Below, in pieces: positions 4,156 through 37,321 of a DNA stretch of 46,185 nucleotides (position 1 is its first letter; every line of letters starts with the position of its first letter). The translations under genes and the position numbers were made by a program. The stretch is from a virus. The stretch lies in the IMG/VR virus record IMGVR_UViG_3300045988_161343. The stretch is one strand, 5' to 3'. Under the pieces are notes generated by a model. It was not told the DNA's origin. It ran no database searches and worked only from the letters and a program-made list of their open reading frames with translations.

Positions 4156-5505
4156 ATGGATATTAATCACTGTGGTTATATTGTAAAAGTTAAAGAACTG
4201 CGGGCACACCCTAATGCAGACAAGCTCTACATCGCAACTTTCTTCGGCAATGATACTTGCGTTTCCATTGATACGCAGGTTGGCGATATTGGTGTCTACT
4301 TCCCCTGCGACCTCCAGCTTTCCCTCGAATTTTGCATCGCCAATCATCTGTGCCGCAAGCTTCCCGATGGGACTGCTGACACTGGTTATATGGAAGTAGA
4401 TAAGCGTAATATTACTGCTATCAGACTGCGTGGCGAACGTTCCGATGGTCTGTATCTGCCGATTAGCTGTTTCAATTATTGCTATGACGATAATGCAAGT
4501 GCTTATCTAAAGGTGGGCGACATTATTAACGAAGTTAATGGTCATCCTATCTGCAATAAGTATATTCCGCGTACTAGAAAGCAGAATAATACCAATAACT
4601 CTAATGTGAGCAAGACTCGCAAGCATAAGGATCCGATTGCTCCTCTGTTCAAAGAGCATATTGATACTGCCCAGCTTGCTTATAACCTTAATGCATTCAA
4701 GCCTGGCGACCTTATTGAAATTACTCGTAAGCTCCATGGTACTTCTGCACGAATCGGCTATCTGCCTGTTCTCAAGGGCTATAAGCGTACTCTGTGGGAT
4801 AAGATTACTCGTAAAGATGGCAAACCTATCTATCAGTATGATTACATTGACGGCACTCGCCGCACTCTGCTAGTCAGCTATGATGGCGGCTTCTATGGTT
4901 CTAATGAATTCCGTAAGCATTTCCATGAAGCAATTAAAGGCAAGCTGCATGAAGGCGAAACCTGTTATGCTGAAATTATTGGTTTTACTGATGATGGCGT
5001 GCCGATTATGGGTTCTGTTTCCAATAAGAAAACCAACGATAAGGCATTCATTAAGCAATATGGCGATATGACTACCTTCTCTTATGGCTGCGACCCTACT
5101 GGTGTTACTGCTCCGAAGAACGATTTTTATGTTTATCGTATGACTCTAACTACTCATGATGGTTATACTGTGGAATATTCTCCTGAATATACTCGGTATC
5201 GTTGTGAACAGATGGGCGTAAAATTCGTTCCTGTTGAATGGCGTGGCTATATCCCCGAGCATCCGGCATCTGAAAATGATGATACTATCACCGCAGGCGA
5301 ATGGATTATGAATAAGGCAGAACAGTATTATGATGGTCCTGAGCCGATTGATCCGCGACATGTGCGTGAAGGCGTCGTTGTGCGTCTGGTTGATAAGCCT
5401 TCTTTCACAGCATATAAAATCAAGAATTTCTCCTTCAAGTGTATTGAAGGAATTGCGGTTGCTGATACTACTCCAGTAGATGAAACAATCGCGGAGGAAC
5501 TGTGA
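4156..5505 (+). CDS. ATP-dependent RNA ligase (Rnl2/Rnl5-like nucleotidyltransferase) with an N-terminal tRNA-binding OB (Myf/EMAP-type) domain, 449 aa
   Basis: N-terminus HPNADKLYIATFFGND...VSIDTQVGDIGV...RGERSDGLYLPISCF matches the tRNA_bind fold. Ligase motifs: I RKLHGTS (KxHG), IV EGVVVR, V YKIKN. Confidence 0.7.
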   Translation: MDINHCGYIVKVKELRAHPNADKLYIATFFGNDTCVSIDTQVGDIGVYFPCDLQLSLEFCIANHLCRKLPDGTADTGYMEVDKRNITAIRLRGERSDGLYLPISCFNYCYDDNASAYLKVGDIINEVNGHPICNKYIPRTRKQNNTNNSNVSKTRKHKDPIAPLFKEHIDTAQLAYNLNAFKPGDLIEITRKLHGTSARIGYLPVLKGYKRTLWDKITRKDGKPIYQYDYIDGTRRTLLVSYDGGFYGSNEFRKHFHEAIKGKLHEGETCYAEIIGFTDDGVPIMGSVSNKKTNDKAFIKQYGDMTTFSYGCDPTGVTAPKNDFYVYRMTLTTHDGYTVEYSPEYTRYRCEQMGVKFVPVEWRGYIPEHPASENDDTITAGEWIMNKAEQYYDGPEPIDPRHVREGVVVRLVDKPSFTAYKIKNFSFKCIEGIAVADTTPVDETIAEEL

Positions 5506-10780: not shown

Positions 10781-11233
10781 ATGATTTGGTTAGCTATTGG
10801 TTTTGTATTTTTCATTGTATGCCTTTGTATTTCTTCTAACCCCACTATTAAAGAAGTTGTTTGTTTATTTGCAATTATTTGCATTATTCTTCCTCTACTT
10901 GTTGGCGGTGTAATTGGTGCATTTGTTGTGCCGAACCAAGAAACACGAGAGCATATTATAGAAGATTATGAATTATTGAAACTTGACGAAGATAATTATA
11001 TTTGGTATACTCGGAACGGAAATATTGTATATAATACTAGAGAAACAGGTTTGGCAATAAATCATCTGGATTATTATACTAATTTTGAATTAACAGATGA
11101 AACGCCACACGTAGTTAATATTATCTATAAAAATTTTGTCCCATTCACTACACCTTGGTGGTTCGGTATTGAATTTGGTAAAGATATTATTACAACATTC
11201 TATTTAAACAATTTGGATAGAACTATTTTCTAA
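10781..11233 (+). CDS. Membrane protein (two TM helices), 150 aa
   Basis: ORF track. Confidence 0.5.
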   Translation: MIWLAIGFVFFIVCLCISSNPTIKEVVCLFAIICIILPLLVGGVIGAFVVPNQETREHIIEDYELLKLDEDNYIWYTRNGNIVYNTRETGLAINHLDYYTNFELTDETPHVVNIIYKNFVPFTTPWWFGIEFGKDIITTFYLNNLDRTIF

Positions 11234-12197: not shown

Positions 12198-13355
12198 ATG
12201 AGTTATTTATTTACCAGTGAGAGCGTTTTTGCCGGTCATCCTGATAAGGTTTGTGATTAGGTAAGTGATGCTATTCTGGATTATGTCCTCCAGCTTGATC
12301 CTGATGCCCGAGTAGCTTGTGAATGTACTATTAGTCCAGGTCTTTTCCACATAATGGGAGAGATTACAGCTAAAACAGAACAATCTATTCCTTATCAGGA
12401 AATTGCAAGAGAGACTTTAAGGTTTATTGGTTATGACAATGATGAAGCAGGATTTAACTGCGACACTTGTTCATATATTATTAATGTAGTAAATCAATCC
12501 CCTGACATCGCTGCGGGTGTCGATAGAGATGGTGCTGGAGATCAAGGCATGATGTTTGGTTATGCAACTAACGAAACAGAAAATTATATGCCTATTGCCC
12601 AGCAGCTTGCTAACAATATCTCGGTCATTATGTTTAGTAAGTATAAAAATGATTTGCTACCTTGGGCGTTACCTGACGGCAAATGTCAGATAACTGTCCA
12701 ATACGATGATGATGGCAACTTTGAAGGGGTAGATACAATTGTCGTATCGGCCCAACACAAAGACAAGTATAGTATTAAGGAAATAACGCCCGATATTACG
12801 AACATTTGTAATATTGCCCTTCAAGGTTATGCCATTAAAAAAGATTGTAAATTTTATATTAACCCAACAGGTAAGTTTGTAAAGGGCGGACCTGCGGCTG
12901 ATACCGGATTAACAGGACGTAAAATCGTTGTAGATACATATGGTGGTTATGCACCACATGGTGGCGGAGCATTTAGCGGTAAAGATAGTTCTAAAGTAGA
13001 TAGATCTGGTGCTTATATGGCACGTTATGTAGCTAAAAATCTTGTAGCTTCTGGTGTTTGTGATAAATGTATGATTCAAGTTGCTTATATTATTGGGCAG
13101 ACAGAACCTGCATCTATTGATATTAATTGTTTTGGCACAGAAAAGAAACCTATCGCTGAAATTCTTGAAGCAGTTAATCAGACATTTGATTTTGCACCGC
13201 GTAGTATTATTCATAAATTTGATTTAAAGCATACTCGCTATTTACCCTATGCTTGCTTCGGTCATTTTGGTCGCATTGAATGTAATAGCCCTTGGGAACA
13301 GCTCGATAAAGTAGAAGAATTAAAAACAATTTTTGATTTTAAAAAGGAGAACTAA
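12198..13355 (+). CDS. metK: S-adenosylmethionine synthetase (MetK) homolog, 385 aa, with one in-frame TAG at a conserved Gln position
   Basis: MSYLFTSESV..GHPDKVCD(TAG)VSDA matches the MetK motif HPDKIADQISDA. Downstream GAGDQGMMFGYA, KGGPAADTGLTGRKIVVDTYGG and GGGAFSGKD are MetK hallmarks. The track only shows the part after the TAG. Confidence 0.8.
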
Positions 13356-15318: not shown

Positions 15319-15736
15319 CATGAGTAAGGTAATGTCTGGTCCAGGCAATCCTTTTGTATTTAATCAAATGGATTTTTTAATGGGTCGTATTAAAAAAGAA
15401 GACACATTAAATAAATACCATGCGCTACTTAAATCGGGTAGAGTTATTCTTGAAGACTATTGGTGTTGGCATGATCATAAATGGTATAAAGCATTAATTA
15501 AATGCCTTAACGATTTTTATATTGTAATTACTACTGAAGAAGATGTAATTAGTATAGAAAGAATAGAAAATCCAACAGTAGATTCTATCTATATGGAATA
15601 TATATTGGCAAGTAGAATGAGAGGAGATGAAATTGATGGCGACTCTATATATGATGTGCGGCTTGAGTGCAAATGGAAAGACTACATTCGCGAAATCCTT
15701 CGCAAAGATGAATCACATCCGATATGTAAACCCTGA
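15305..15736 (+). CDS. Hypothetical protein, 143 aa
   Basis: ORF track. Confidence 0.45.
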   Translation: MEEFNMSKVMSGPGNPFVFNQMDFLMGRIKKEDTLNKYHALLKSGRVILEDYWCWHDHKWYKALIKCLNDFYIVITTEEDVISIERIENPTVDSIYMEYILASRMRGDEIDGDSIYDVRLECKWKDYIREILRKDESHPICKP

Positions 15737-16172
15737 TGAATTGTATGCTGTCTTTAATGGTGATGAATGCAACCGTAGTCATAAGTTCGAAGTTTGGCAG
15801 ACATTGTATCAGATTGTGCATTGTGCAGAACTGGATGGTGTAGATATTATTATTGACACTAACTGTTTGACTCTTGGACAGAGAGAAGAAATCAGAAGCC
15901 GTTTCCCCCATTTCGATAGTTATCAGCTTATGGTTATTATCGCCAGCGTAGAAAATTCAAAGGAATGGAACTCCAAGAGACATAGAGTAGTGCCGCAGCA
16001 GGAACTTGAACGGCAGGCACGTATTGTAGACTGGCCTAATTTGACTGACCATTATAATGGTTGGAATAATATTAGATATTATTACAATGATGGTTCTCTG
16101 TTTACTAAATATCGTGAAATCTATGATGGCGAAGACCATGACTTGCGACAGGAGAAGGAGGATAATAAATAA
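15636..16172 (+). CDS. P-loop kinase, polynucleotide-kinase-like (AAA_33/Pnk kinase family), about 178 aa
   Basis: Walker A CGLSANGKTTFAK close to the N-terminus, then D..TN..L...R pattern. Start is ATG 15636 (SD AGGAGA) or ATG 15651. Confidence 0.5.
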   Translation: MATLYMMCGLSANGKTTFAKSFAKMNHIRYVNPDELYAVFNGDECNRSHKFEVWQTLYQIVHCAELDGVDIIIDTNCLTLGQREEIRSRFPHFDSYQLMVIIASVENSKEWNSKRHRVVPQQELERQARIVDWPNLTDHYNGWNNIRYYYNDGSLFTKYREIYDGEDHDLRQEKEDNK

Positions 16173-18776: not shown

Positions 18777-20495
18777 ATGACGGATTTGAGGACTCTTATT
18801 CCAGAAGAAGAAAAGAATCTGCTGCATGATTATATTAAAGAGTACCTTCATTCTGATAATTACTGTACAGTAGATGAAATCAATCATCTTCTACGGTTTT
18901 GGGCTGCTGAAAAGCTTGACCTGTATGAGTTGCTTGGTAATAATTTGATGGTCGAAGATCATATTTCCTATCAGGCATCTGGGGATGATTTGATGGATAA
19001 ATTCAATGCAATGTATGAAGAAATTTATAATAATCCTGAATTAGCAAACGTTAAAAAATTCATTGACTCTTACGAGCAGATTACTAATATTTATTATTCT
19101 TGGATGGATGCCACTCTTGACAAGGATGAACGGGCTATGTGTTATAGTATGATTGAACATTGCCTTGATACTGAATCTCTTGTAGCCAATAAAAATTTGT
19201 ATATGTTTGATTGGGGTACCAAATCTGTCACTATTCGCCGAGGTCCACATGCAGATACTTCGAAGCCACTTGAACTGAAAAGTGATATGAAGCTGATGCG
19301 AATGATGGCTAAAATTGTCGATTGGTTTGAGCTGGATAAAGAAGCATTTGAGCAGTTTCGTATTCTTCATTCGCGTGTTTTGAATGACCGTATGATTAAT
19401 GCTGATATTGTACTGTCTATTCATCCGCTTGACTATCTTACTATGAGTGATAATGCTTGTGACTGGGAGAGCTGCATGAATTGGTATCAGGGTGGTGATT
19501 ATCGTCTTGGTACTGTCGAAATGATGAATTCTCCTGTCATCCTTGAAGCATATGTTGAATCTGAACATCCTTATCATCCTATTGACCGTGATACCAGAAC
19601 TTGGAGCAATAAGCGTTGGCGGTGTCTCTATATTGTTAATAAGGATATCATTACTGAAATTAAGCAGTATCCTTATAATAACATTTATCTGCGTGATTAT
19701 GTGCTGAATAAGATTAAGCAGTTGGCTGAACAAAATATGGGCTGGCATTATGATGATAAAATGTATGAGGTTTGGCAGAATCAGAGCAATAAAACTGATT
19801 TTGGTCAGGTTTATATCCGCATGAGGACTGGAGCTATGTATAATGATTATTATGATAATCATTATGCTTATATTAATCCAGAAGTAAAAGAAGTAGAAGT
19901 TTGCTATTCTGGTGTGGCTGAATGTATGTGTTGCGGTAAAGGCTATGAAGCTGACCCGAGTGGAAATGTAGACGCATTTGTAGAATGTGATAAAGTTGTA
20001 TGTGCAACCTGTGAAGGTAAAGTCCAGTGTGATGATTGCGGTGCTTGGATTGATAGTGAAGACGCTTGGTTTTGTAGTGAAGATGGTGCAACTTATTGCA
20101 GCTGGTGTGCAGAGGGCCGCACCCAGGTTTGTAGCTGCTGCGGAGAAACTAAATGGCTTGATTATGATTTCAAGAAACAGACTCTTCCCTACATGTTTGA
20201 GATAAAAACTCCTAATGGTAAGCATCGTCGAGATGTTGGAAATCCTATTGATGTTTGTGATGATTGTTATGAAGATTATGATTTCGATGATGTGCCGAAG
20301 GAGCTAGACTTATGGGGCGATTTTCAGTATATTGATGTTGACAAGGTAGATAAGAAGGTATGGGAGCCATTTCTGTCCCTTGAAAGAATTGCTAATGCCA
20401 AGGTGCGGCTAAAGGCAATTTACCCTGATGATTATGTTTAGTTTAAATTCTTGCCAAAATTGAATACTCGAAAATTTATAAAAAATTTGATATAA
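18777..20495 (+). CDS. Paralog A of a large family (HPLDYxxMSDN...WxSC core plus C-terminal multi-CxxC zinc ribbons), about 572 aa
   Basis: SIHPLDYLTMSDNACDWESCMNW core. The track ends at TAG 20439-20441; reading TAG as sense gives TAA at 20493-20495. Confidence 0.5.
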
Positions 20496-22111: not shown

Positions 22112-22328
22112 ACTGGTTGAAAAAACTGATTGGAATAAATATCATAAAGAAGATATTCTCGATTTGGTTAAAGAGCATCCTGAACTTCTGAATATGACAC
22201 CTGTTCAGCTTCGTACCAGAGCCAGAGATTTGGATTGGGATGCTGATGGATATATGAATAAGGTTAATAGCCTTGAAAATGAAGCGTCTTTGACTAGAGA
22301 TTTAATTGAAATCATGTATGGAGAGTGA
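22089..22328 (+). CDS. Hypothetical protein, 79 aa
   Basis: ATG 22089 in frame with track ORF 21930; the earlier part overlaps the upstream gene. Confidence 0.4.
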   Translation: MNIAELIKLVEKTDWNKYHKEDILDLVKEHPELLNMTPVQLRTRARDLDWDADGYMNKVNSLENEASLTRDLIEIMYGE

Positions 22329-22333
22329 TAATT

Positions 22334-23140
22334 ATGAATTACCATTCAGATAAATGGGTTATGGATAAGGTAGAAACTCATTTAGAAGCAGCTAATGTTA
22401 AAGGAGAAAATTGGGTTAGTTTAATGGCTTATGGTAGCCAGAACTATGGTCTTGATACTCAATCGTCTGATGTAGATACCCGACTTATTGTTCTTCCTTC
22501 ATTTGAAGATATTGTACTAAATAAGAAGCCAGTATCTTATACCAAGATTCTTCCTAATGATGAACACATTGATTTTAAAGATATTCGTTTGTTCATTGAT
22601 TGTTTGAAGAAACAGAATATGGCATATCTTGAATGTATCTTCACACCTTATAAAATGGCATCAAGCGTGTATTGGAATGAGTGGCAGGTACTGCTTAATG
22701 AGCGTGAAGCTATTGCACGTTATAATCCTTACAAGGCAGTTAAGACAATGAAGGGTATTGCTATGGAAAAATATCATGCAATGGAACATAGATATCCTAC
22801 TAAAACTCATCTGATTGATACATATGGTTATGATAGTAAGCAGCTTATGCATTTGCTTCGTATTGAACAGTATCTTGGACGTTATATTGATGGGGTTAAA
22901 TATGCAGATTGCCTTCAGGCTCCAATGGGTGATTATCTTCTTGATGTAAAAAATTATCACTATGATCTTGAAACTGCACGAATTATAGCAAATACTGCTA
23001 TTAATAATATTACAAGAGTAGCTGATGATTATTGTTCTAAGACCAAGGATGAAGGTAATGAAGAACTTGAAGATTTTATGAATAAGATTGTTTATCTTAC
23101 TATGAAAAAAAGAATTGTAAAGGAAATGTTAAATGTCTGA
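22334..23140 (+). CDS. Pol-beta-superfamily nucleotidyltransferase, about 268 aa
   Basis: GSQNYGLDTQSSDVDTRLIV fits the hG[GS]x9-13D.[DE] NTase signature. Confidence 0.5.
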   Translation: MNYHSDKWVMDKVETHLEAANVKGENWVSLMAYGSQNYGLDTQSSDVDTRLIVLPSFEDIVLNKKPVSYTKILPNDEHIDFKDIRLFIDCLKKQNMAYLECIFTPYKMASSVYWNEWQVLLNEREAIARYNPYKAVKTMKGIAMEKYHAMEHRYPTKTHLIDTYGYDSKQLMHLLRIEQYLGRYIDGVKYADCLQAPMGDYLLDVKNYHYDLETARIIANTAINNITRVADDYCSKTKDEGNEELEDFMNKIVYLTMKKRIVKEMLNV

Positions 23141-23337: not shown

Positions 23338-24117
23338 ATGTTCAAGGACTATCTGATTAGAGGCGATTGTCATGGTGATTTCACATGGCTTAATGCAAGA
23401 ATGTTTAGAATTTTAAATCCAAAAGACTATGCAATTATTATCCTTGGAGACTGCGGTTTTAATACTGGTAGTGCATTCAGAGATAATATGAAGAAAGAAT
23501 ATGCAAGCCAGTTTGGATATTTTATTTATTGCGTGCATGGCAATCATGAAGTACGTCCTGAAAATGTTGAAGGTATAGAGCGTATTTGGGATAGCAATGT
23601 TCAGGCTAATGTATGGTATGAGCCGACTCACCCTCTGATTAGATATTTTGATAATTACGGGATTTATTATCTTAAAACCGAAGATAGAGAATATCGTACA
23701 TTAGTTATTGGTGGTGCTTATTCTGTTGATAAATATTATCGTCTTAAAAACAATCTGCTTTGGTGGGAAGATGAACAATTAAGTGATAAAGAAAAAGTTG
23801 ATGCTGAAATGCTTATTCGACAAACTAATAAGCATTTTGATCTTGTACTATCACACACCTGCCCTTATTCTCTTAGGCCAGTTGATAAATTTCTTTCAGT
23901 AGTAGATCAATCTACTGTAGATACCTCTATGGAAGAATGGCTTGAAGAAATTAAGAATATGATTACATATGATGTATGGCTCTTTGGTCATTATCATTGT
24001 GATAGATTTATTAATAAGCATAATATTATCTTTTTTAATTGTATTGACCCTTTGGAGGATATTTTTCTCTGGCATGATAAAATGGATGATGCTGTAAATA
24101 ATATTGACCGCTTTTAA
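23338..24117 (+). CDS. Calcineurin-like metallophosphoesterase, 259 aa
   Basis: GDCHGD ... ILGDCGFN ... VHGNHE motifs. Confidence 0.6.
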   Translation: MFKDYLIRGDCHGDFTWLNARMFRILNPKDYAIIILGDCGFNTGSAFRDNMKKEYASQFGYFIYCVHGNHEVRPENVEGIERIWDSNVQANVWYEPTHPLIRYFDNYGIYYLKTEDREYRTLVIGGAYSVDKYYRLKNNLLWWEDEQLSDKEKVDAEMLIRQTNKHFDLVLSHTCPYSLRPVDKFLSVVDQSTVDTSMEEWLEEIKNMITYDVWLFGHYHCDRFINKHNIIFFNCIDPLEDIFLWHDKMDDAVNNIDRF

Positions 24118-25428: not shown

Positions 25429-26784
25429 ATGACGCCTTATGAAGCATTAACGGCACAAGATAAGAAATATATTACTGAATATATTGAAACATGGGGTGGT
25501 GTTAATTCCCCTATTAAACTCAAAGCATCTCTTGATTATATCCTTCGAGAATGGAATAAGAGTAAACAAACTCTATTTAATATTTTTGGCGAAAAGTTAA
25601 TGCTGGAGAAGGAAATCCAGGTTGAAGATGGAGATAACAAAAAAGTAAGAGAAGTTAATGAGTATCTCTATAGCACTAATCCTGGTATCAATTTTATTAC
25701 AAATCTTCGTAGATTATTTGAATCTGATACTACTTATTTTGAAAATAGTTATGCAACAAGACATGCCATATATAATTTAACTCAAGCTTATCAACTTTTT
25801 ACTAATAGAGTTGTTAAAGGATTTGCTTATCACAATAAAGATGGTAAAGTAGTTAAAGTTCCAGAAGGAGCTAAGGTAATGAAAGTTCTTCAGAAAATGG
25901 CTAAAGAATTTGATTTGCCTGATTTTGAAATTTTTCGCAATCATGTTTCACGTATTACTGAAGTACGCAAATCTAAAATTAAATTTACTCTGTCTATTCA
26001 TCCCTTGGATTATATGACTATGAGCGATAATGCAAATTGCTGGGAAAGTTGTATGAATTGGACTCAAGGGTCAGGAAGCTATCGTGCAGGTACTATTGAG
26101 ATGATGAATAGTCCATTAGTTGTTGTAGCATATATTACTACTAAACCTTACTATCCAGAAAATACTTCTATTGAATGGACTTCCAAAAGTTGGAGAGAAT
26201 TAATCATTGTCCATCCGAATGCTATTTGTTCTGTAAAATCTTATCCTTATTACAATATTGCATTTGATAAAGCTCTTGTAAATTGGCTTGTTGATTTGGT
26301 TGAAGAAAAAACTGAATGGCGTTATAACAGAAAAAAGCCACAAGAGAGTTTGGAAAGTTGCTCTTATATTGGAGCTTGGCAAGATAAAGAAGATAAGGAT
26401 AATCATTTTCTGTTGGATTTTGCAACAAATGAAATGTATAATGATTTTGGTAATACAGAGAATTATGGAATTTTTTCAATTAATCCACCAAACAATAAAT
26501 ATCGTACATTTACAATTAATTATTCTGGTTTAATGACTTGTATGTGCTGCGGCGAGGATGGTTATTTGTCTGACGACACTGAAATGGTGATTTGTGAAGA
26601 CTGTGATCCACCTACTTATTGTTATTGTTGTGGTGAACGAGTTAATACAAATGATGCAATTGAAGTAGACGGCGAATGGGTCTGTGAAGATTGTTATTGT
26701 GATTTGCATAGATGTTTATGCTGTGAGGATACTCATTTTGATGAAGATTTCACTCCCGTATTTATTGGACATATTGATAATTAA
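25429..26784 (+). CDS. Paralog B of the HPLDY/zinc-ribbon family, 451 aa, ending at TAA
   Basis: SIHPLDYMTMSDNANCWESCMNW core; C-terminal CxxC clusters. Confidence 0.55.
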   Translation: MTPYEALTAQDKKYITEYIETWGGVNSPIKLKASLDYILREWNKSKQTLFNIFGEKLMLEKEIQVEDGDNKKVREVNEYLYSTNPGINFITNLRRLFESDTTYFENSYATRHAIYNLTQAYQLFTNRVVKGFAYHNKDGKVVKVPEGAKVMKVLQKMAKEFDLPDFEIFRNHVSRITEVRKSKIKFTLSIHPLDYMTMSDNANCWESCMNWTQGSGSYRAGTIEMMNSPLVVVAYITTKPYYPENTSIEWTSKSWRELIIVHPNAICSVKSYPYYNIAFDKALVNWLVDLVEEKTEWRYNRKKPQESLESCSYIGAWQDKEDKDNHFLLDFATNEMYNDFGNTENYGIFSINPPNNKYRTFTINYSGLMTCMCCGEDGYLSDDTEMVICEDCDPPTYCYCCGERVNTNDAIEVDGEWVCEDCYCDLHRCLCCEDTHFDEDFTPVFIGHIDN

Positions 26785-28587: not shown

Positions 28588-29586
28588 ATGGGTAAAAAAG
28601 TTTTAGTTCCTGATTTTACTGAAAATTGTAGAGGGATTTTGGAAGGGTTATTCAAGATTAGTGAAGTAGGTCTTTTGAAAGCTCTCGGTGATTTTGTATC
28701 TAATAAATATTCTAATGTAGAGATTACAGAAGATTATGTATATGCTGAAGGTAATATTCCTGTTATGCTTATTGCACATGTAGATACTGTATTTAGACAA
28801 CCAATTCGTCAATTTACTTATAATGAGAAAAGAGCTGTTTATAAAGGCAAGGAAGGTCTTGGAGCAGACGATAGAGCAGGTGTTTTTGCGATTATTCAGA
28901 TTTTACGCAAAAAGTATAGACCTTATGTTCTTTTTACAACAGATGAAGAAATGGGTGGCTATGGTGCGCATATATTTGTTGAAGCACATCCAGTAGCTCC
29001 AAATATTAAGTACATGATTGAGCTTGATAGAGCTGGTGAAAGAGATTGTGTCTTCTATGAGTGTGAAAATTTTACATTTATAGATTATGTTGAAAGTTTT
29101 GGTTTTAGACAAGCAATTGGATCATTTACAGATATTAGTATTATTATGCCTGAATGGGAAATTGCCGGAGTAAATTTATCAGTTGGCTATCATCATGAAC
29201 ATACTCAAAATGAAGATTTGCATATTAGAACATTGTATAATACAATTAATAAAGTATGTAAAATGCTTGATGATATTGAAAATGCAGATAAATATAAATT
29301 TATCCCCAGCAAGGAATATCTTCAGTGGATTACATTGACTAATAAATATCATATGCCTTATGATTTTGATGATGATAAACTTATTAATTGTAGTTTTTGT
29401 AATCAGTTGTATTATGAGTGGGAAGATTTTCCTCTTGATATTGATGGAGTAAAGGTTCATGTATGCCCTGAATGTTTGGCACTTGATCCTAATATTCATC
29501 AATGTGAAAGGTGCTATAATTTATTTTATTCAAATAATATGAAAGAAAGAGTATGTGATAAATGTCGAGTCCCTGTTGTAATTTAA
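28588..29586 (+). CDS. M20/M28/M42-type metallopeptidase-like protein with C-terminal Cys4 zinc ribbons, 332 aa
   Basis: MLIAHVDTVF ... GADDRAGVFA motifs (HxD, GxDD) of the zinc-peptidase/deacylase fold. C-terminus CSFCNQ...CPEC...CERC...CDKC. Confidence 0.45.
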   Translation: MGKKVLVPDFTENCRGILEGLFKISEVGLLKALGDFVSNKYSNVEITEDYVYAEGNIPVMLIAHVDTVFRQPIRQFTYNEKRAVYKGKEGLGADDRAGVFAIIQILRKKYRPYVLFTTDEEMGGYGAHIFVEAHPVAPNIKYMIELDRAGERDCVFYECENFTFIDYVESFGFRQAIGSFTDISIIMPEWEIAGVNLSVGYHHEHTQNEDLHIRTLYNTINKVCKMLDDIENADKYKFIPSKEYLQWITLTNKYHMPYDFDDDKLINCSFCNQLYYEWEDFPLDIDGVKVHVCPECLALDPNIHQCERCYNLFYSNNMKERVCDKCRVPVVI

Positions 29587-29666
29587 ATGAAATTAAAGAA
29601 CAAGTAAAGAAGGTTATTGCCTATTCATAGGGACTGGACATTAACCTTTTAAATATTGATAAATTA

Positions 29667-30987
29667 ATGAATGATTGGGAAGAGAATAAATGCAAATTTT
29701 ATAGCAGACTTCCTGGTAATAAATTAATTTATCAAAGTCATGCACCTATTACAATGTCTATTTCAGAAGATGATAAAAAAGCTGAATTAGATTGTTTTAT
29801 TGACAACATTCGTTGGCGTTATGGCTTATTTGAATTAAGAGATTTTGTTGAAAATAATAGAAAAAATTTTTATAATAATATTTTAAGCGAAGATTATTCA
29901 ATGAATAATGGAACTATCATTCCAAAAGGAATGAAAATAATTAAAGCATTTAAATATTTTGTAGAAGATAAGGAAATTCTTACTGAAATACAAGATAAAG
30001 CTAGTATGCTTATTCAAAATACAAAAATTAGTGGATATTTTTGTATGTCAGTTCATCCATTGGATTATCTTAGTTTAAGTGAAAATACGCATAATTGGCG
30101 GTCATGTCATGCTCTTGATGGAGAATATCGTGCTGGTAATTTATCTTATATGGCAGATAATTGTACGATTATATGTTATATTAAGAGTGAACATGATGCG
30201 GTTTTACCTAGATTTCCAGATGATGTACCATGGGCAGATAAGAAGTGGCGTATGCTTCTTCATGTATCTGATGATGATACTATGGTTATTTCAGGTCGGC
30301 ATTATCCTTATGAAAGTAAAGGATTACAAGATTTTGCTCTTGAACTGTATGAAACATTTTTCGGGCAAGGATATCGGTTTACCGATTGGTGTCATGAAAA
30401 ATATAATACATTTACAATAAATGATAAAATCTTTTCTAATGAAGTTCGTTTATTACCTACTGGGTATATGATGACCCCAGATATTAAGGTTATTGTTGAC
30501 CCAAAAAATCCTTTACATTATAATGACCCTCTTCATTCTACTGTATATGACTATTGGTTTAGTATTGCTTATAGTGAACCTTATTGGCATGAAGAAGGTA
30601 TTCCGCAAGATAAATTAATTCTTCCAAGAACTCGTACCACTACTAAAGTTAATATAGGACATGATGTAAAATGTTGTATTTGTGGTAAAAATGATTGTGT
30701 TTTAACAGATACGATGCTTTGTATTGATTGTGAACTTAAATATGGTACAGAAGAAACAGAAGATTTTACTTTCTGTAGAGAATGCGGTAGACGTATTTAT
30801 ATTCCTGAAGCAATATCATTAGATGATGATGATGGTTATGTATGCCGTAGTTGCGGAGACAATTATTAGATATGTGATAATTGTAATATGTATTATGATA
30901 AAAAAGATTTAATTTATGATGAAGAAAACAATGCTTACTATTGTGAAGCTTGTTATGATGAAATTTTATTTGATAGGGAGAATGAAT
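29667..30987 (+). CDS. Paralog C of the HPLDY/zinc-ribbon family, about 440 aa. TAG at 30867-30869 is read through into a further Cys4 ribbon ending at TAA
   Basis: MSVHPLDYLSLSENTHNWRSC core. Extension ICDNCNMYYDKKDLIYDEENNAYYCEACYDE continues the CxxC module. Confidence 0.5.
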
Positions 30988-30988
30988 A

Positions 30989-31297
30989 ATGGCAAAAGGT
31001 AGTATTGCTAAAGATGCTGTTGTAGAAAAAATTGCAGAAGCATTTGGTGAAGATTTCCTCGGATCTTATGATAAAAAGTATTATGTGCGAGCTAAAGAAA
31101 ATGGACAATATATTCAGATTGCAATTAGTCTAACGTGTCCGAAAACTCCTGTAGAAAATTTTGGTTCTATGGATTTTGGTAATAATGAACTTAATTTTGA
31201 AAATGGAGCAACAATTCAGTCTGTAAAGAAGGCTACAGAAATTAGTCCAGAAGAAGAAGAAAATTTAAAAGCTTTAATTGAAAAGCTTGGTTTATAA
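30989..31297 (+). CDS. Hypothetical protein, 102 aa
   Basis: ORF track. Confidence 0.5.
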   Translation: MAKGSIAKDAVVEKIAEAFGEDFLGSYDKKYYVRAKENGQYIQIAISLTCPKTPVENFGSMDFGNNELNFENGATIQSVKKATEISPEEEENLKALIEKLGL

Positions 31298-31404: not shown

Positions 31405-31686
31405 ATGAAGAAGATTATAATTCCTCAAGAAGAAGTAAATTATCTTTAGAAATTAAATTATGAAATTGAAGCTAGAAAAAATTTATGTCAATTTTTAATT
31501 AGACAAAATATTAGAAATAAAGCTTTTAATGATTATCATAATGAGTATATAGAATTATTTGCTGAATATGAATTAGCTAAATTAGAATTAGAAAATAATT
31601 ATATCAAACCAGAAATTGGGAATCAAACTTGCAATTGGAATTTAGATTTTTATACAAATGAGGTAATTATTGATGTTATTTCCTAA
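31405..31686 (+). CDS. Small protein, 93 aa with one TAG, first gene of the rSAM cluster
   Basis: SD AAAGGA; continuous frame ending at TAA; overlaps the rSAM start. Confidence 0.4.
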
Positions 31687-33013
31687 AATAAGCCACATTC
31701 CTGAAGAATTTTCTGATTTTATAGGTCGTTTATATCCTGAAGATTGTTTAAATTCTTAGTCTGTATTTACATTAACATTTTAGGTTACAGATGATTGTTG
31801 TTTAAATTGTACTTATTGTTATCAAGGGCATAAAGGTAAACATAAATTATCTTTTGAAACAGCTAAACAGATGATTGATTAGATATTAACCAGAGATAAT
31901 AAAATTATTGGTTATATTGATTCTTATAAAATACCAGGAGTAATAATAGAATTTATAGGTGGAGAGCCATTTTTAGAAATTGAATTAATTGATTAGATTA
32001 CTGATTATTTTATTAATAAAATGATTGAATTGCGGCATCCTTGGGCTACTAAATATAAAATTTCAATTAGTTCTAATGGTATTTTATATTTTGAACAAAA
32101 AGTACAAGAGTATATTAAAAAAAATAATGAAAATTTAAGTTTATCAATTTCTATTGATGGAAATAAAAAATTACATGACGCTTGTAGAGTTTTCCCTGAT
32201 GGTAGTGGTAGTTATGATAAAGCATTGTCTGCCGCATTACATTATAGCCATAATTATAATAAATGGATTGGGAGTAAAATGACTATCTCTCCATTTAATA
32301 TAGATTATTTATATGACGCTGTTTTAGAAATGATAAACAATGGTTATAGTCAAATCAATCTAAATTGTGTGTATGAAAAAGGTTGGGAACTTAACCATGC
32401 CACTACATTATATTATTAGTTAAAAAAAATTGCTGATTATTTATTAAATAATGATTTGTGGGATAAAGTTTATTTATCTATTTTTTATATTAATGATGGA
32501 AGTAAAAATTTATCTAATGATAATTGGTGTGGCGGGAATGGTCGTATGTTAGCCTTAAATTGGAAAGGTAAATATTATCCATGTTTACGTTATATGGAAG
32601 ATAGCATAAGTAATCAGCCAGAATATTATATTGGAGATATTTATTAGGGAATAGGCCAAGATAATTTAACCATCAATAGATTAAAAGATTTATCTGAAAT
32701 AACAGTTATTAGTCAATCTCCTCAAGAATGTTTAGATTGTGAAATTTCTGGAGGATGCTCTTGGTGTACAGCTTATAATTATCAAGAAACAGGTAATGTT
32801 AATAAAAGAGTTACTTATATTTGTGATATGCATTATGCTACAGTTCTAGCTTCTTTATATTATTTAAATTCTATTTTAAAAAAAATAAACTCGAATAAAC
32901 GATTTAAATTTAATGGAGATATGGAAAAAGCATTAAAAATTATCTCTTAGGATGAATATAATATAATAAAGGAGACAATGACAAATGAAAATAGGAACGA
33001 CAATAACTTCTGA
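31673..33013 (+). CDS. Radical SAM enzyme with C-terminal SPASM/twitch domain (anSME / RiPP-maturase-like), 446 aa with about 7 in-frame TAGs; fragmented in the track
   Basis: CCLNCTYC = CxxxCxxC cluster, GGEP motif. C-terminal Cys clusters CGGNGRMLAL...YYPCLRY and CLDCEISGGCSWCT. Frame is continuous from ATG 31673 to TGA 33011-33013 only with TAG as sense. Confidence 0.65.
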
Positions 33014-33635
33014 TAGATTCAATGAATTAAAGAAAAAAATAAAGGCTGAATGTTTACGTCGTAAATATACCGGTAGTGTAAGTTCATATGGAGGGACTTC
33101 TTATGATTATACTACTTAGCCTGATAATGGAAAAGTTATTTCAAAAGAACACATAACAAAACTGGTAGAACCTATGGCGGCAATAAATATTGAAAATCAG
33201 AATGAAAATATAAATGTTATTAAAGATGATGATTTAAGTACATTAGAGGCAAAAATTACAGCTTATCAAGCTATGGGATTAACTGATTCGAATACTGGAT
33301 GTTCAGCTTATTGCACTGGATTATGTTCTACCAGTTGTAGCGAAAGTTGTGGAGTACAATGTTAGGAAACTTGTTTAGGTAGTTGTAAGAATACTTGCCA
33401 AGGAGGCTGTCAAAACACTTGCAGAGGCGGATGTCAAAGCAGTTGTAGTGGTAGCTGTAGCGGATGTAGTGGTTCTTGCTCAGGTGGATGCTATACAGGA
33501 TGTAGTGGATGCAGTGGTAGCTGTACAAGACATTGTGCTAACGATTGTACTGGATTGTGTGGAGGAAGTTGTTCAGGTTTATGTACAAGCTGTACTGGCA
33601 CATGTAGTGGCACAGGTAGAAATGAACCATTATAA
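32985..33635 (+). CDS. Cysteine-rich repeat peptide, 216 aa: ~100-aa leader followed by ~27 tandem C-x3-C units; precursor-like
   Basis: SD AAGGAGA 9 nt upstream. Core is CSAYCTGLCSTSCSESCGVQC(TAG)ETCLGSCKNTCQGGCQNTCRGGCQSSCSGSCSGCSGSCSGGCYTGCSGCSGSCTRHCANDCTGLCGGSCSGLCTSCTGTCSG; two in-frame TAGs. Confidence 0.55.
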
Positions 33636-34585: not shown

Positions 34586-34660
34586 TCCGTGGTCGAATAA
34601 CTGGATAATTCATCAGAGTTAATTCTGAAAATAAGGATTCGAATTCCTTCCTTGGAGCCA
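34586..34660 (+). tRNA. tRNA-like gene with canonical acceptor, D and T arms, CCA, and a 6-nt anticodon loop (gTTAat); own promoter, flanked by AAAAGACTTTT/AAAAGTCTT inverted repeats
   Basis: tccgtgg tc gaat aactggata attc a tcaga gttaat tctga aaat aagga ttcgaat tcctt ccttgga g cca. Confidence 0.35.
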
Positions 34661-34742: not shown

Positions 34743-34891
34743 CAAATAAATGCTCTCGTAGCTCAATTGGTCAGAGCCGGCGACTTATCCAAGATTAGTT
34801 TAAATGGCAAAATAGTCTATGCGCAAGAAAGATGTAAGTTCAAATCTAACATCTTGGGCCAAATCGCCAGATGTGGGTTCAAATCCCGACG
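34743..34891 (+). tRNA. tRNA carrying a ~73-nt tRNA-like insertion inside the anticodon loop; anticodon after excision is ambiguous (UAU, UAA or CAA depending on junction)
   Basis: Outer: gctctcg ta gctc aattggtca gagc c ggcga cttat[...]aa tcgcc agat gtggg ttcaaat cccga cgggagc a cca. Insert 34780-34852 is ccaagat...gtaag ttcaaat ctaac atcttgg g cca (acceptor-like stem + T-arm + CCA). Confidence 0.45.
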
Positions 34892-34926
34892 GGAGCACCA
34901 TATTCCAATAGAAAGGAATTAAAATA

Positions 34927-36142: not shown

Positions 36143-36275
36143 GCGCCAGTGGCCAAGTGGTATGGCACCTGCCTTTGTGGGATTGATGTAAGTAGCATTT
36201 TAATGTATTGGTTCAAATCCAATATTCCGCACCATAAGCAGGGCAACGCGGGTTCGATCCCCGCCTGGCGCACCA
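36143..36275 (+). tRNA. tRNA with Gln-like D-arm carrying a 58-nt tRNA-like insertion in the anticodon loop; the residual loop could read UUU, UUG, UAU or CAU depending on junction
   Basis: Outer: gcgccag tg gcc aagtggtat ggc a cctgc cttt[...]taa gcagg gcaac gcggg ttcgatc cccgc ctggcgc a cca. Insert 36177-36234 is gtgggat tg atg-taagtag-cat tttaatgt attgg ttcaaat ccaat attccgc a cca. Confidence 0.45.
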
Positions 36276-36596: not shown

Positions 36597-36673
36597 GCGG
36601 GATTAGCTCAGCTGGTTAGAGCGTTTGGTTTACACCCAAGAGGTCATTGGTTCAAATCCAATATCCTGCACCA
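36597..36673 (+). tRNA. tRNA-Val (anticodon UAC)
   Basis: gcgggat ta gctc agctggttag agc g tttgg tttacac ccaag aggtc attgg ttcaaat ccaat atcctgc a cca. Preceded by a 13-bp hairpin at 36555-36595. Confidence 0.75.
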
Positions 36674-37247: not shown

Positions 37248-37321
37248 GGGGACATAGTTTATGGTAGGAAAACGTTGAATTTAATTCAAAATCGAGGGTG
37301 CAATTCCCTCTGGCTCCACCA
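37248..37321 (+). tRNA. Atypical tRNA. The anticodon arm folds either as 5 bp + 5-nt loop or 4 bp + 7-nt loop ATTTAAT (anticodon UUA, ochre-type); assignment unresolved
   Basis: ggggaca ta gttt atggtagg aaac g ttgaa tttaa ttcaa aatc gaggg tgcaatt ccctc tggctcc a cca. One A-G mismatch in the acceptor. Confidence 0.35.

Follow-up and report, generated by a model that had tools for sequence, protein, structure and literature searches.

A stretch of 46,185 nucleotides from the virus record IMGVR_UViG_3300045988_161343 (hereinafter the window, by which we mean the whole stretch analysed) carries, within a tRNA array at ~34.5–38.3 kb, a tRNA gene at positions 36143–36275 of the forward strand whose anticodon loop is interrupted by a 58-nt element that itself resembles part of a tRNA. 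The locus raises two questions: which tRNA does this gene yield, and how might the element be removed from its transcript? A previous reading made from the letters of the window alone (hereinafter the sequence-only reading) regarded the gene as Gln-like and as the best candidate in the window for decoding TAG. The comparisons described here contradict that assignment. Instead, we are confident that this is a tRNA-Lys(UUU) gene with an intron between anticodon positions 35 and 36. The intron is exactly a tRNA-like unit, extending from nucleotide +1 to CCA76 and placed directly after a U.

The interrupted gene and its intron-less allele

The outer gene combines the acceptor stem GCGCCAG/CTGGCGC, in which pair 1–72 is G–C, with the D arm GCCAAGTGGTATGGC, the anticodon stem CCTGC/GCAGG and the T arm GCGGG-TTCGATC-CCCGC, followed by A73 and CCA. 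Every stem and arm listed in the sequence-only reading is present, as is the 58-nt tRNA-like element inside the anticodon loop. The parts of the gene are as follows:

36143..36275, + strand: complete outer tRNA gene
36143..36176, + strand: tRNA-Lys(UUU) 5′ exon (acceptor 5′ strand, D arm, CCTGC, loop nucleotides C32 U33 U34 U35)
36177..36234, + strand: tRNA-like mini-intron of 58 nt without an open reading frame (ORF), equal to the exact gap of the intron-less allele
36177..36183, + strand: acceptor-like 5′ strand of the intron, GTGGGAT, with U(−1) preceding G+1
36186..36198, + strand: D-arm-like hairpin ATGT-AAGTA-GCAT, read directly from the sequence
36207..36223, + strand: T arm of the intron, ATTGG-TTCAAAT-CCAAT, from junction and pairing comparisons
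36224..36234, + strand: acceptor 3′ strand of the intron, ATTCCGC, with A73 and CCA, the 3′ junction lying immediately past A76
36235..36275, + strand: tRNA-Lys(UUU) 3′ exon (U36 A37 A38, GCAGG, variable loop, T arm, acceptor 3′ strand, A73, CCA)

Written out in full, the insert reads GTGGGAT-TG-ATGT/AAGTA/GCAT-TTTAATGT-ATTGG/TTCAAAT/CCAAT-ATTCCGC-A-CCA, and has the shape of a tRNA's upper half: an acceptor stem of 7 bp and a small D-like hairpin, then a T arm and, at the end, A73 with CCA. The acceptor-like stem GTGGGAT/ATTCCGC is paired at all seven positions, two of the pairs being G–U. We also considered whether the insert could be a duplicated 3′ half left behind by site-specific integration; the pairing rules this out, with 7/7 pairs formed with its own 5′ end as against 4/7 with the outer acceptor. 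The ends of the intron resemble the tRNA-Val(UAC) gene at 36597–36673, with 6/7 matches in the 5′ strand and 26/29 over the final 29 nt, and to judge from this likeness the mini-intron may have been derived from a tRNA-Val through internal deletion.

The junction is defined by comparison with an uninterrupted counterpart. The sequence-only reading had listed four possible loops, namely CTCATAA, CTTATAA, CTTTTAA and CTTTGAA, and these are indeed the only 7-nt possibilities. In the close relative L084 (contig ..152007), whose radical-SAM protein is 98% identical to that of the window, we found an uninterrupted tRNA at c[2026,2100] with the loop CTTTTAA. The body of this empty allele is a single D-loop base apart from the occupied genes of two other loci, L082 with the 58-nt insert and L085 with a 735-nt insert, and in the alignment (A1) the gap of L084 covers exactly the stretch that opens with the G of GTGGGAT and closes with the A of ACCA. 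Only one of the four loops, CTTT+TAA, matches the empty allele; therefore, the mature RNA would be tRNA-Lys(UUU), with the intron at 35/36.

The alternative, in which a tRNA of Gln type would decode a recoded TAG once processed, builds on a property of this phage that the homologues bear out. In-frame TAG codons are numerous in the genes beyond ~31.6 kb, and at TAG positions 37, 108 and 249 of the radical-SAM protein Gln occurs in 64–71 of the 73–77 aligned homologues. Because homologues have Gln at these conserved positions, the view that TAG is read as Gln, already taken in the sequence-only reading, is supported by the comparison. Moreover, the window has no tRNA with a CUA anticodon, a hidden one being ruled out by the finding of no CUA hairpin in a tRNA context anywhere in the window, and the D arm does resemble that of bacterial tRNA-Gln. 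However, this resemblance, while real, is not Gln-specific, as the same "Gln-like" D arm (GCCWAGYGGTAWGGC) is shared with uninterrupted phage tRNA-Lys(UUU) genes. The anticodon of the empty allele is UUU, and CUA is yielded by no junction over all 7-nt loops, a point that the sequence-only reading had itself conceded. The acceptor end likewise speaks against this alternative: in place of a Gln-type end with G73 and a weak or unpaired 1–72, the gene has G1–C72 and A73, whereas G73 is found both in the tRNA-Gln(UUG) of the clade (L083, 8460–8534) and in its intron-less, Gln-like amber suppressor tRNAs(CUA). The latter, which are encoded by relatives as separate genes (L083, 9032–9106; L283, ~11050–11125 on the minus strand), additionally have an unpaired U1·C72. 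Thus, we regard a role of the interrupted gene as the TAG decoder as extremely improbable.

Standard tools fare poorly with this gene. It is missed by ARAGORN with default settings; the intron mode recovers 36143–36275, but places the junction arbitrarily and labels the product Met(CAT). The default Rfam match (36143–36231, 31 bits) is chimeric, joining the 5′ half of the outer gene to the T arm of the insert. Across the family described below, members are missed or misnamed, the ARAGORN labels being Met, Gln, Trp, SeC and Ile, so that lists of tRNAs and suppressors drawn up for recoded phages are misread. In both modes of ARAGORN combined, 36143–36275 is the sole tRNA-Lys detected in the window. 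A blastn search of phages with the spliced tRNA returned weak matches annotated as Gln, Lys and Asn, which are uninformative on identity. Thermodynamically, the whole precursor is unremarkable (z-score −1.6), and its minimum-free-energy fold shows the outer cloverleaf, the inner T arm and the hairpin coexisting, with a register shift in the inner acceptor helix. Given such a z-score, the case rests on comparative evidence and not on thermodynamics.

That comparative evidence, which lifts the feature above chance, extends to both folds. In the spliced exons of six sequences from four tRNA-Lys bodies, 21/21 cloverleaf pairs are kept and 15/21 show compensatory changes, while A73 and the loop CUUUUAA are invariant. 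Between the window and the related locus L001, the Lys gene differs by one change in 133 nt, which turns a G–U pair of the intron stem into A–U, within a surrounding block that is ~93% identical; in L082, the intron acceptor has a compensatory G–C to A–U change. In the interrupted tRNA-Ile gene of the same array, all four changes fall inside the intron: two of them make up a compensatory G–C to A–U pair and one keeps its pair as G–U. From all these alignments, both the outer and the inner RNA fold therefore appear to be under selection.

A family of tRNA-like introns and its mobility

Combining the intron mode of ARAGORN with two DNA-pattern scans and a structural filter, we recovered at least 13 genes with introns of this kind. 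They comprise six unrelated insert sequences hosted by tRNA-Lys(UUU) and tRNA-Ile(UAU) genes, here named by host and length in nucleotides:

Lys-58: window, L001, L082
Lys-735, with an HNH ORF: L085
Lys-44: L089, L090
Lys-69: metagenome locus L218, among the matches listed
Ile-73: window 34752–34900, L001, L082, L083; in another tRNA body in L084
Ile-81: L074, L075

Excision of the unit from acceptor +1 to nucleotide 76 leaves a 7-nt loop and a perfect 5-bp anticodon stem in 13/13 genes, the resulting loops being CUUUUAA for Lys and CUUAUAA for Ile. A U at N(−1) is likewise found in 13/13 genes, and the acceptor of the intron is always paired at 7/7 positions. The T arm has a TTCRAnn loop and is followed by the acceptor 3′ strand, R73 and CCA, which is replaced by CUA once, in Ile-81. 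Between these ends the interior varies from a 9-nt linker up to a complete cloverleaf-like fold. As a control, none of the 120 pattern matches listed from cellular genomes passes the two-stem structural filter. The closest public relatives of the window are uncultivated viral contigs of 137–201 kb, among which IMGVR_UViG_3300045988_164317 is ~96% identical to it, and a megablast search of GenBank phages with the 4-kb tRNA array gave zero matches.

The sister gene in the window belongs to this family:

34752..34900, + strand: tRNA-Ile(UAU)-like gene with a 73-nt cloverleaf-like intron at 34789–34861

Its intron reads CCAAGAT...ATCTTGG G CCA and splits the loop as CTTAT|AA, the ARAGORN label being Trp or SeC. 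Among the loci fetched we found no intron-less Ile(UAU) allele (GGCGACTTATAATCGCC), and the Ile junction therefore rests solely on the 7-nt-loop rule. In L084 the same Ile-73 intron lies at c[4012,4159] in a tRNA body that is quite unlike this one and has a "Gln-like" D arm; this suggests that the intron moves jointly with the anticodon stem-loop.

The 735-nt intron of L085 links the family to a homing endonuclease. It occupies the identical CTTT|TAA site and ends in GATTTAG...TTAAATC-A-CCA as in the rest of the family; at the place of the ATGT-AAGTA-GCAT hairpin of the window it has GCAT-AAGTA-ATGC, so that the stem covaries and the AAGUA loop is kept. Its ORF of 204 codons, with AGGAG upstream and several in-frame TAG codons, encodes an HNH endonuclease, the closest homologues of which (52–53% identity) have a tRNA-Lys(UUU) gene at a distance of ~90 nt. 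The HNH gene of L089 and of L090 stands ~90 nt downstream of a tRNA-Lys bearing the 44-nt mini-intron, and in L088 and L091 the HNH-adjacent tRNA-Lys(UUU) is uninterrupted. Remoter homologues are free-standing within tRNA arrays of other phages. A search for a homologue of this protein in the window was negative, ruling out such an HNH gene there.

Occupied and empty alleles are found side by side among near-identical phages, and the Lys-58 intron is present in two tRNA-Lys bodies whose acceptors differ at 5/7 pairs. These alleles, the presence of both Ile-73 and Lys-58 in two bodies each, and the HNH link fit a homing-endonuclease-driven mobile element with ORF-less miniature derivatives. The 58-nt copy would then be a miniature dependent on an endonuclease acting in trans, and the HNH protein is predicted to cleave the intron-less tRNA-Lys gene. 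Two further observations come from arrays with homologues of the HNH gene: L098 has a tRNA-Asn with a 191-nt insert in the anticodon loop (2079–2357), and the variable arm of a tRNA-Lys(UUU) in L088 (1328–1411) is unusual, at 15 nt.

A predicted splicing route and its alternatives

The ends of the intron are those of a mature tRNA, and on this ground we propose that enzymes of tRNA end processing double as splicing nucleases. RNase P would cut between U(−1) and G+1, that is, at the 5′ junction, leaving the 5′ exon with a 3′-OH, and a 3′ endonuclease acting at CCA ends (of the RNase Z/BN or RNase E type) would cut past A76 and provide the 3′ exon with a 5′-phosphate. The outer cloverleaf would hold the exon halves together while a phage ATP-dependent RNA ligase (4156–5505) seals them, comparably to anticodon-loop repair of the T4 type, the products being tRNA-Lys(UUU) and a free minihelix ending in CCA. 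HNH homing would spread the element among tRNA-Lys and tRNA-Ile genes, and the element could shrink to a 44-nt minihelix.

The minimal substrate of bacterial RNase P is an acceptor/T minihelix, its 12 bp stacked coaxially, with a T loop, a 3′ RCCA and U(−1). All these features are present in the family: 7+5 bp in 12/12 introns, the TTCRAnn T loop, R73, CCA (with the single CUA) and U(−1) in 13/13; indeed, the features common to all six intron sequences are solely those that define this substrate. From the sequences, RNase P is thus predicted to cut at the 5′ junction. For the cut after CCA, RNase Z/BN is one candidate; another is RNase E, which in E. coli cuts directly after an encoded CCA in one step, according to one report (PMC5291269). 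The mature tRNA would be predicted to be charged with lysine and used in translation.

The window encodes a set of RNA-repair proteins, which are scattered across its early region:

4156..5505, + strand: ATP-dependent RNA ligase with an N-terminal OB domain (PF09414 + PF21189; phrog_968, E = 9e-64)
15627..16172, + strand: P-loop kinase of the polynucleotide-kinase type, a putative end-healing enzyme
22325..23140, + strand: nucleotidyltransferase of the RlaP RNA-repair family, its link to the intron being speculative
23338..24117, + strand: metallophosphoesterase, a putative end-healing enzyme

The ligase is the candidate exon-joining enzyme. It shows a weak match, below the cut-off, to TIGR02306 (the DraRnl family), and has no sequence match in the PDB; an intron-bearing relative encodes an 84%-identical orthologue, the one close orthologue reached by the search of relatives. 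The kinase, the phosphoesterase and the RlaP protein would matter if the cuts left cyclic-phosphate/5′-OH ends.

How probable is this account? Taken as a whole, with a mobile tRNA-mimic intron spliced by RNase P, a CCA-end nuclease and a ligase, we consider it evenly balanced; the route of cleavage and sealing is coherent, and here the balance is even at best. Several points weigh against it. Excision itself, the enzymes that cleave and the part played by the ligase are all proposed on the basis of sequence, and for the host enzyme cutting exactly after CCA we can name candidate types only. RNA-repair kits are common among large phages without such introns, and the presence of a ligase is therefore not specific. 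The DraRnl/NgrRnl type, which the ligase resembles, is known for sealing nicks in duplexes and not loops. The apparent covariation of the intron minihelix, which is 97% paired over 12 sequences with both-sided changes at 11/12 pairs, is biased upward by the choice of strands, because the 5′ strands were located via their pairing; the unbiased checks of the feature are the intron-less allele and the exact 7-nt loop in every case. Finally, the introns of Lak megaphages considered below, with a leader of ~26 nt and an end at or near the discriminator, suggest that the model may fail for the wider family: with such a leader before the tRNA-like part, RNase P alone cannot set the Lak 5′ splice site.

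A genuinely spliced tRNA-Lys(UUU) intron might instead be removed by a different route, for instance via a dedicated, so far unrecognized phage or host endonuclease. The cuts would then leave 2′,3′-cyclic phosphate and 5′-OH ends to be healed by the phage kinase and phosphoesterase and sealed by the phage ligase or host RtcB, and the role of the tRNA shape would lie in recognition, stability or mobility, not in being cut by RNase P. Such a route would account for the kinase and metallophosphoesterase encoded in the window, which are superfluous for ends of the RNase P/Z type, and it would accommodate the Lak introns, which start elsewhere than at +1 of the tRNA-like part. Yet it leaves unexplained why the junctions coincide with tRNA +1 and nucleotide 76 in six unrelated introns and why N(−1) is constantly U, and the proteins scanned include no candidate endonuclease; we therefore think it unlikely, if still a serious contender. 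Improbable, in our estimate, is that the element is a selfish insertion which is never spliced and inactivates the tRNA-Lys, processing yielding a minihelix and useless halves, or that the minihelix itself is of use, e.g., as a decoy. The empty and occupied alleles in near-identical phages imply that the insertions are recent, and the host presumably provides tRNA-Lys, both of which would be compatible with a dead gene. Against this, the exons are intact in 4/4 tRNA-Lys bodies with all cloverleaf pairs kept, and no tRNA-Lys besides the interrupted gene was found in the window. Compensatory changes maintain the intron stems, which is sensible only if the RNA fold matters, and the restoration of an exact 7-nt loop in 6/6 intron types is unexpected without splicing.

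The element can hardly be a self-splicing group I intron in degenerate form, or one of the archaeal bulge-helix-bulge type. Group I introns of tRNA genes lie in the anticodon loop after a U, are often mobile through homing endonucleases and are polymorphic in their presence, and the window family shares with them the location, the preceding U, the HNH-linked mobility and the presence/absence alleles; moreover, the anticodon-loop introns so far described in bacterial and phage tRNAs are group I. However, the intron ends in A (...ACCA) instead of the universal G and, at 44–81 nt, versus >200 nt for group I, is too small for the catalytic core. No Rfam intron or ribozyme family was matched in the tRNA array of the window (E ≤ 1) or in the 735-nt intron of L085 (E ≤ 10). 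Having neither the terminal G nor the core, the intron cannot self-splice by the group I mechanism. Archaeal and eukaryal tRNA introns, which are removed by EndA or TSEN and joined by RtcB or Trl1, are similar in being short, in their place in the anticodon loop and in their removal by proteins followed by joining by a ligase. Here, however, the junctions lie in an asymmetric internal loop of 4 nt (CUUU) by 7 nt (ACCAUAA) adjoining a 7-bp helix, and not in the 3-4-3 arrangement of a bulge-helix-bulge, where the splice sites fall in two 3-nt bulges on either side of a 4-bp helix; this and the non-canonical position, 35/36 instead of 37/38, rule this type out. The virus is a bacterial one without EndA, and the ends predicted by our preferred route are 3′-OH/5′-phosphate rather than cyclic phosphate/5′-OH.

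For that route, the nearest functional parallels come from RNA repair and from tRNA-shaped processing signals. In T4 infection, PrrC cuts tRNA-Lys between positions 33 and 34, Pnkp heals the ends and Rnl1 seals them. The likeness to the window lies in a break within the anticodon loop of tRNA-Lys(UUU), in halves that the cloverleaf keeps together, in a phage ATP-dependent ligase and in the additional presence of a kinase and a phosphoesterase. In contrast to the T4 break, which is damage by a host nuclease, the break here would be programmed by the intron at 35/36, and the 4156–5505 ligase is not Rnl1-like. Likewise, in the tRNA punctuation of mitochondrial transcripts and in the MALAT1 mascRNA, RNase P and a 3′ tRNA nuclease are drawn to a tRNA-shaped element and cleave the longer transcript at set positions. 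There the flanks stay unjoined, whereas here the element is nested in a tRNA and its flanks need ligation.

The closest described introns are those of the Lak megaphages, whose tRNAs were reported to contain "enigmatic introns" (Devoto et al. 2019, PMC6784885). The intron of the Lak tRNA-Thr(TGT) was noted there as one that may in its turn code for a tRNA; it is absent from some genomes and has no Rfam match (PMC6784885). In both cases the anticodon loop of a phage tRNA holds an insert with a tRNA-like unit, and alleles with and without the intron exist. By our own reading of Table S6 of that report (PMC6784885), a hairpin leader of ~26 nt and a spacer of the AUUAAA type precede the tRNA-like part of the Lak introns, which are located at 36/37 and end at the discriminator or 1 nt past it, without CCA. 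The window family differs in lacking such a leader: in 13/13 genes it runs from acceptor +1 to CCA76. It furthermore can shrink to a minihelix of 44–58 nt, occupies position 35/36 of tRNA-Lys and has a link to an HNH endonuclease, and its phage clade is a different one, with genomes of ~137–200 kb and 34% GC. The window intron is thus related to the Lak kind, which is already described but unexplained, and the variant is new. In the literature covered, which takes in few subscription journals, we found no mechanistic account of either intron type beyond the descriptive Lak report.

In bacteria and phages, tRNA introns are regarded as self-splicing group I elements, and protein-dependent tRNA splicing is deemed an archaeal and eukaryal trait. 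Tentatively, with the balance lying somewhat against it, the window may represent a third kind of tRNA splicing, situated in a bacterial virus and based on a tRNA-mimic intron spread by HNH homing, with RNase P, a 3′ endonuclease and a repair ligase as the machinery. If so, these three enzymes would suffice for splicing, and the RNA-repair ligases of large phages would gain a housekeeping role. The +1-to-CCA76 rule, U(−1) and the HNH partner turn the "enigmatic" introns of Lak into a directly testable biochemical hypothesis.

Other tRNA-like elements and genes of the window

The window is AT-rich (34% GC), and its genes are on the + strand. Several further elements in or around tRNA arrays deserve mention. 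The T loop of the suppressor tRNAs(CUA) of the relatives is non-canonical, with GTCGGCA or GGCAGCA in place of TTCRANN, and in L283 an ORF with a C-terminus resembling the HNH protein of the intron family ends just upstream of the tRNA(CUA). At 37248–37321 the window has a tRNA (Rfam, 47.7 bits) which is missed by default ARAGORN and kept in L004. Its anticodon region, GTTGA-ATTTAAT-TCAAA, gives either an ochre-type UUA anticodon with a 4-bp stem or a 5-nt loop. The tRNA-like gene at 34586–34660, followed by CCA, has a 6-nt anticodon loop, GTTAAT, and is labeled "Stop|Leu" by ARAGORN. Between two tRNA genes, the segment 37365–37435 shows a weak match to the Rfam family YrlA (Y RNA-like; 29 bits versus a gathering score of 69), and its T arm, acceptor-like stem and D arm are arranged in permuted order.

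Among the protein-coding genes, three paralogous proteins of 450–570 aa (18777–20441, 25429–26784 and 29562–30989) share an S-I/V-HPLDY...W-S-C...YR-G motif and Cys-rich C-terminal tails, and match solely PHROGs of unknown function. The gene of the radical-SAM/SPASM-type enzyme (31673–33013/32985–33635 region) carries seven in-frame TAGs. A gene for a Cys/Gly/Ser-rich peptide follows it, and the pair (31673–33013, 32985–33635) resembles a maturase and precursor of ribosomally synthesized and post-translationally modified peptides, with a gene for a MetK-like SAM synthetase lying upstream at 12198–13355.

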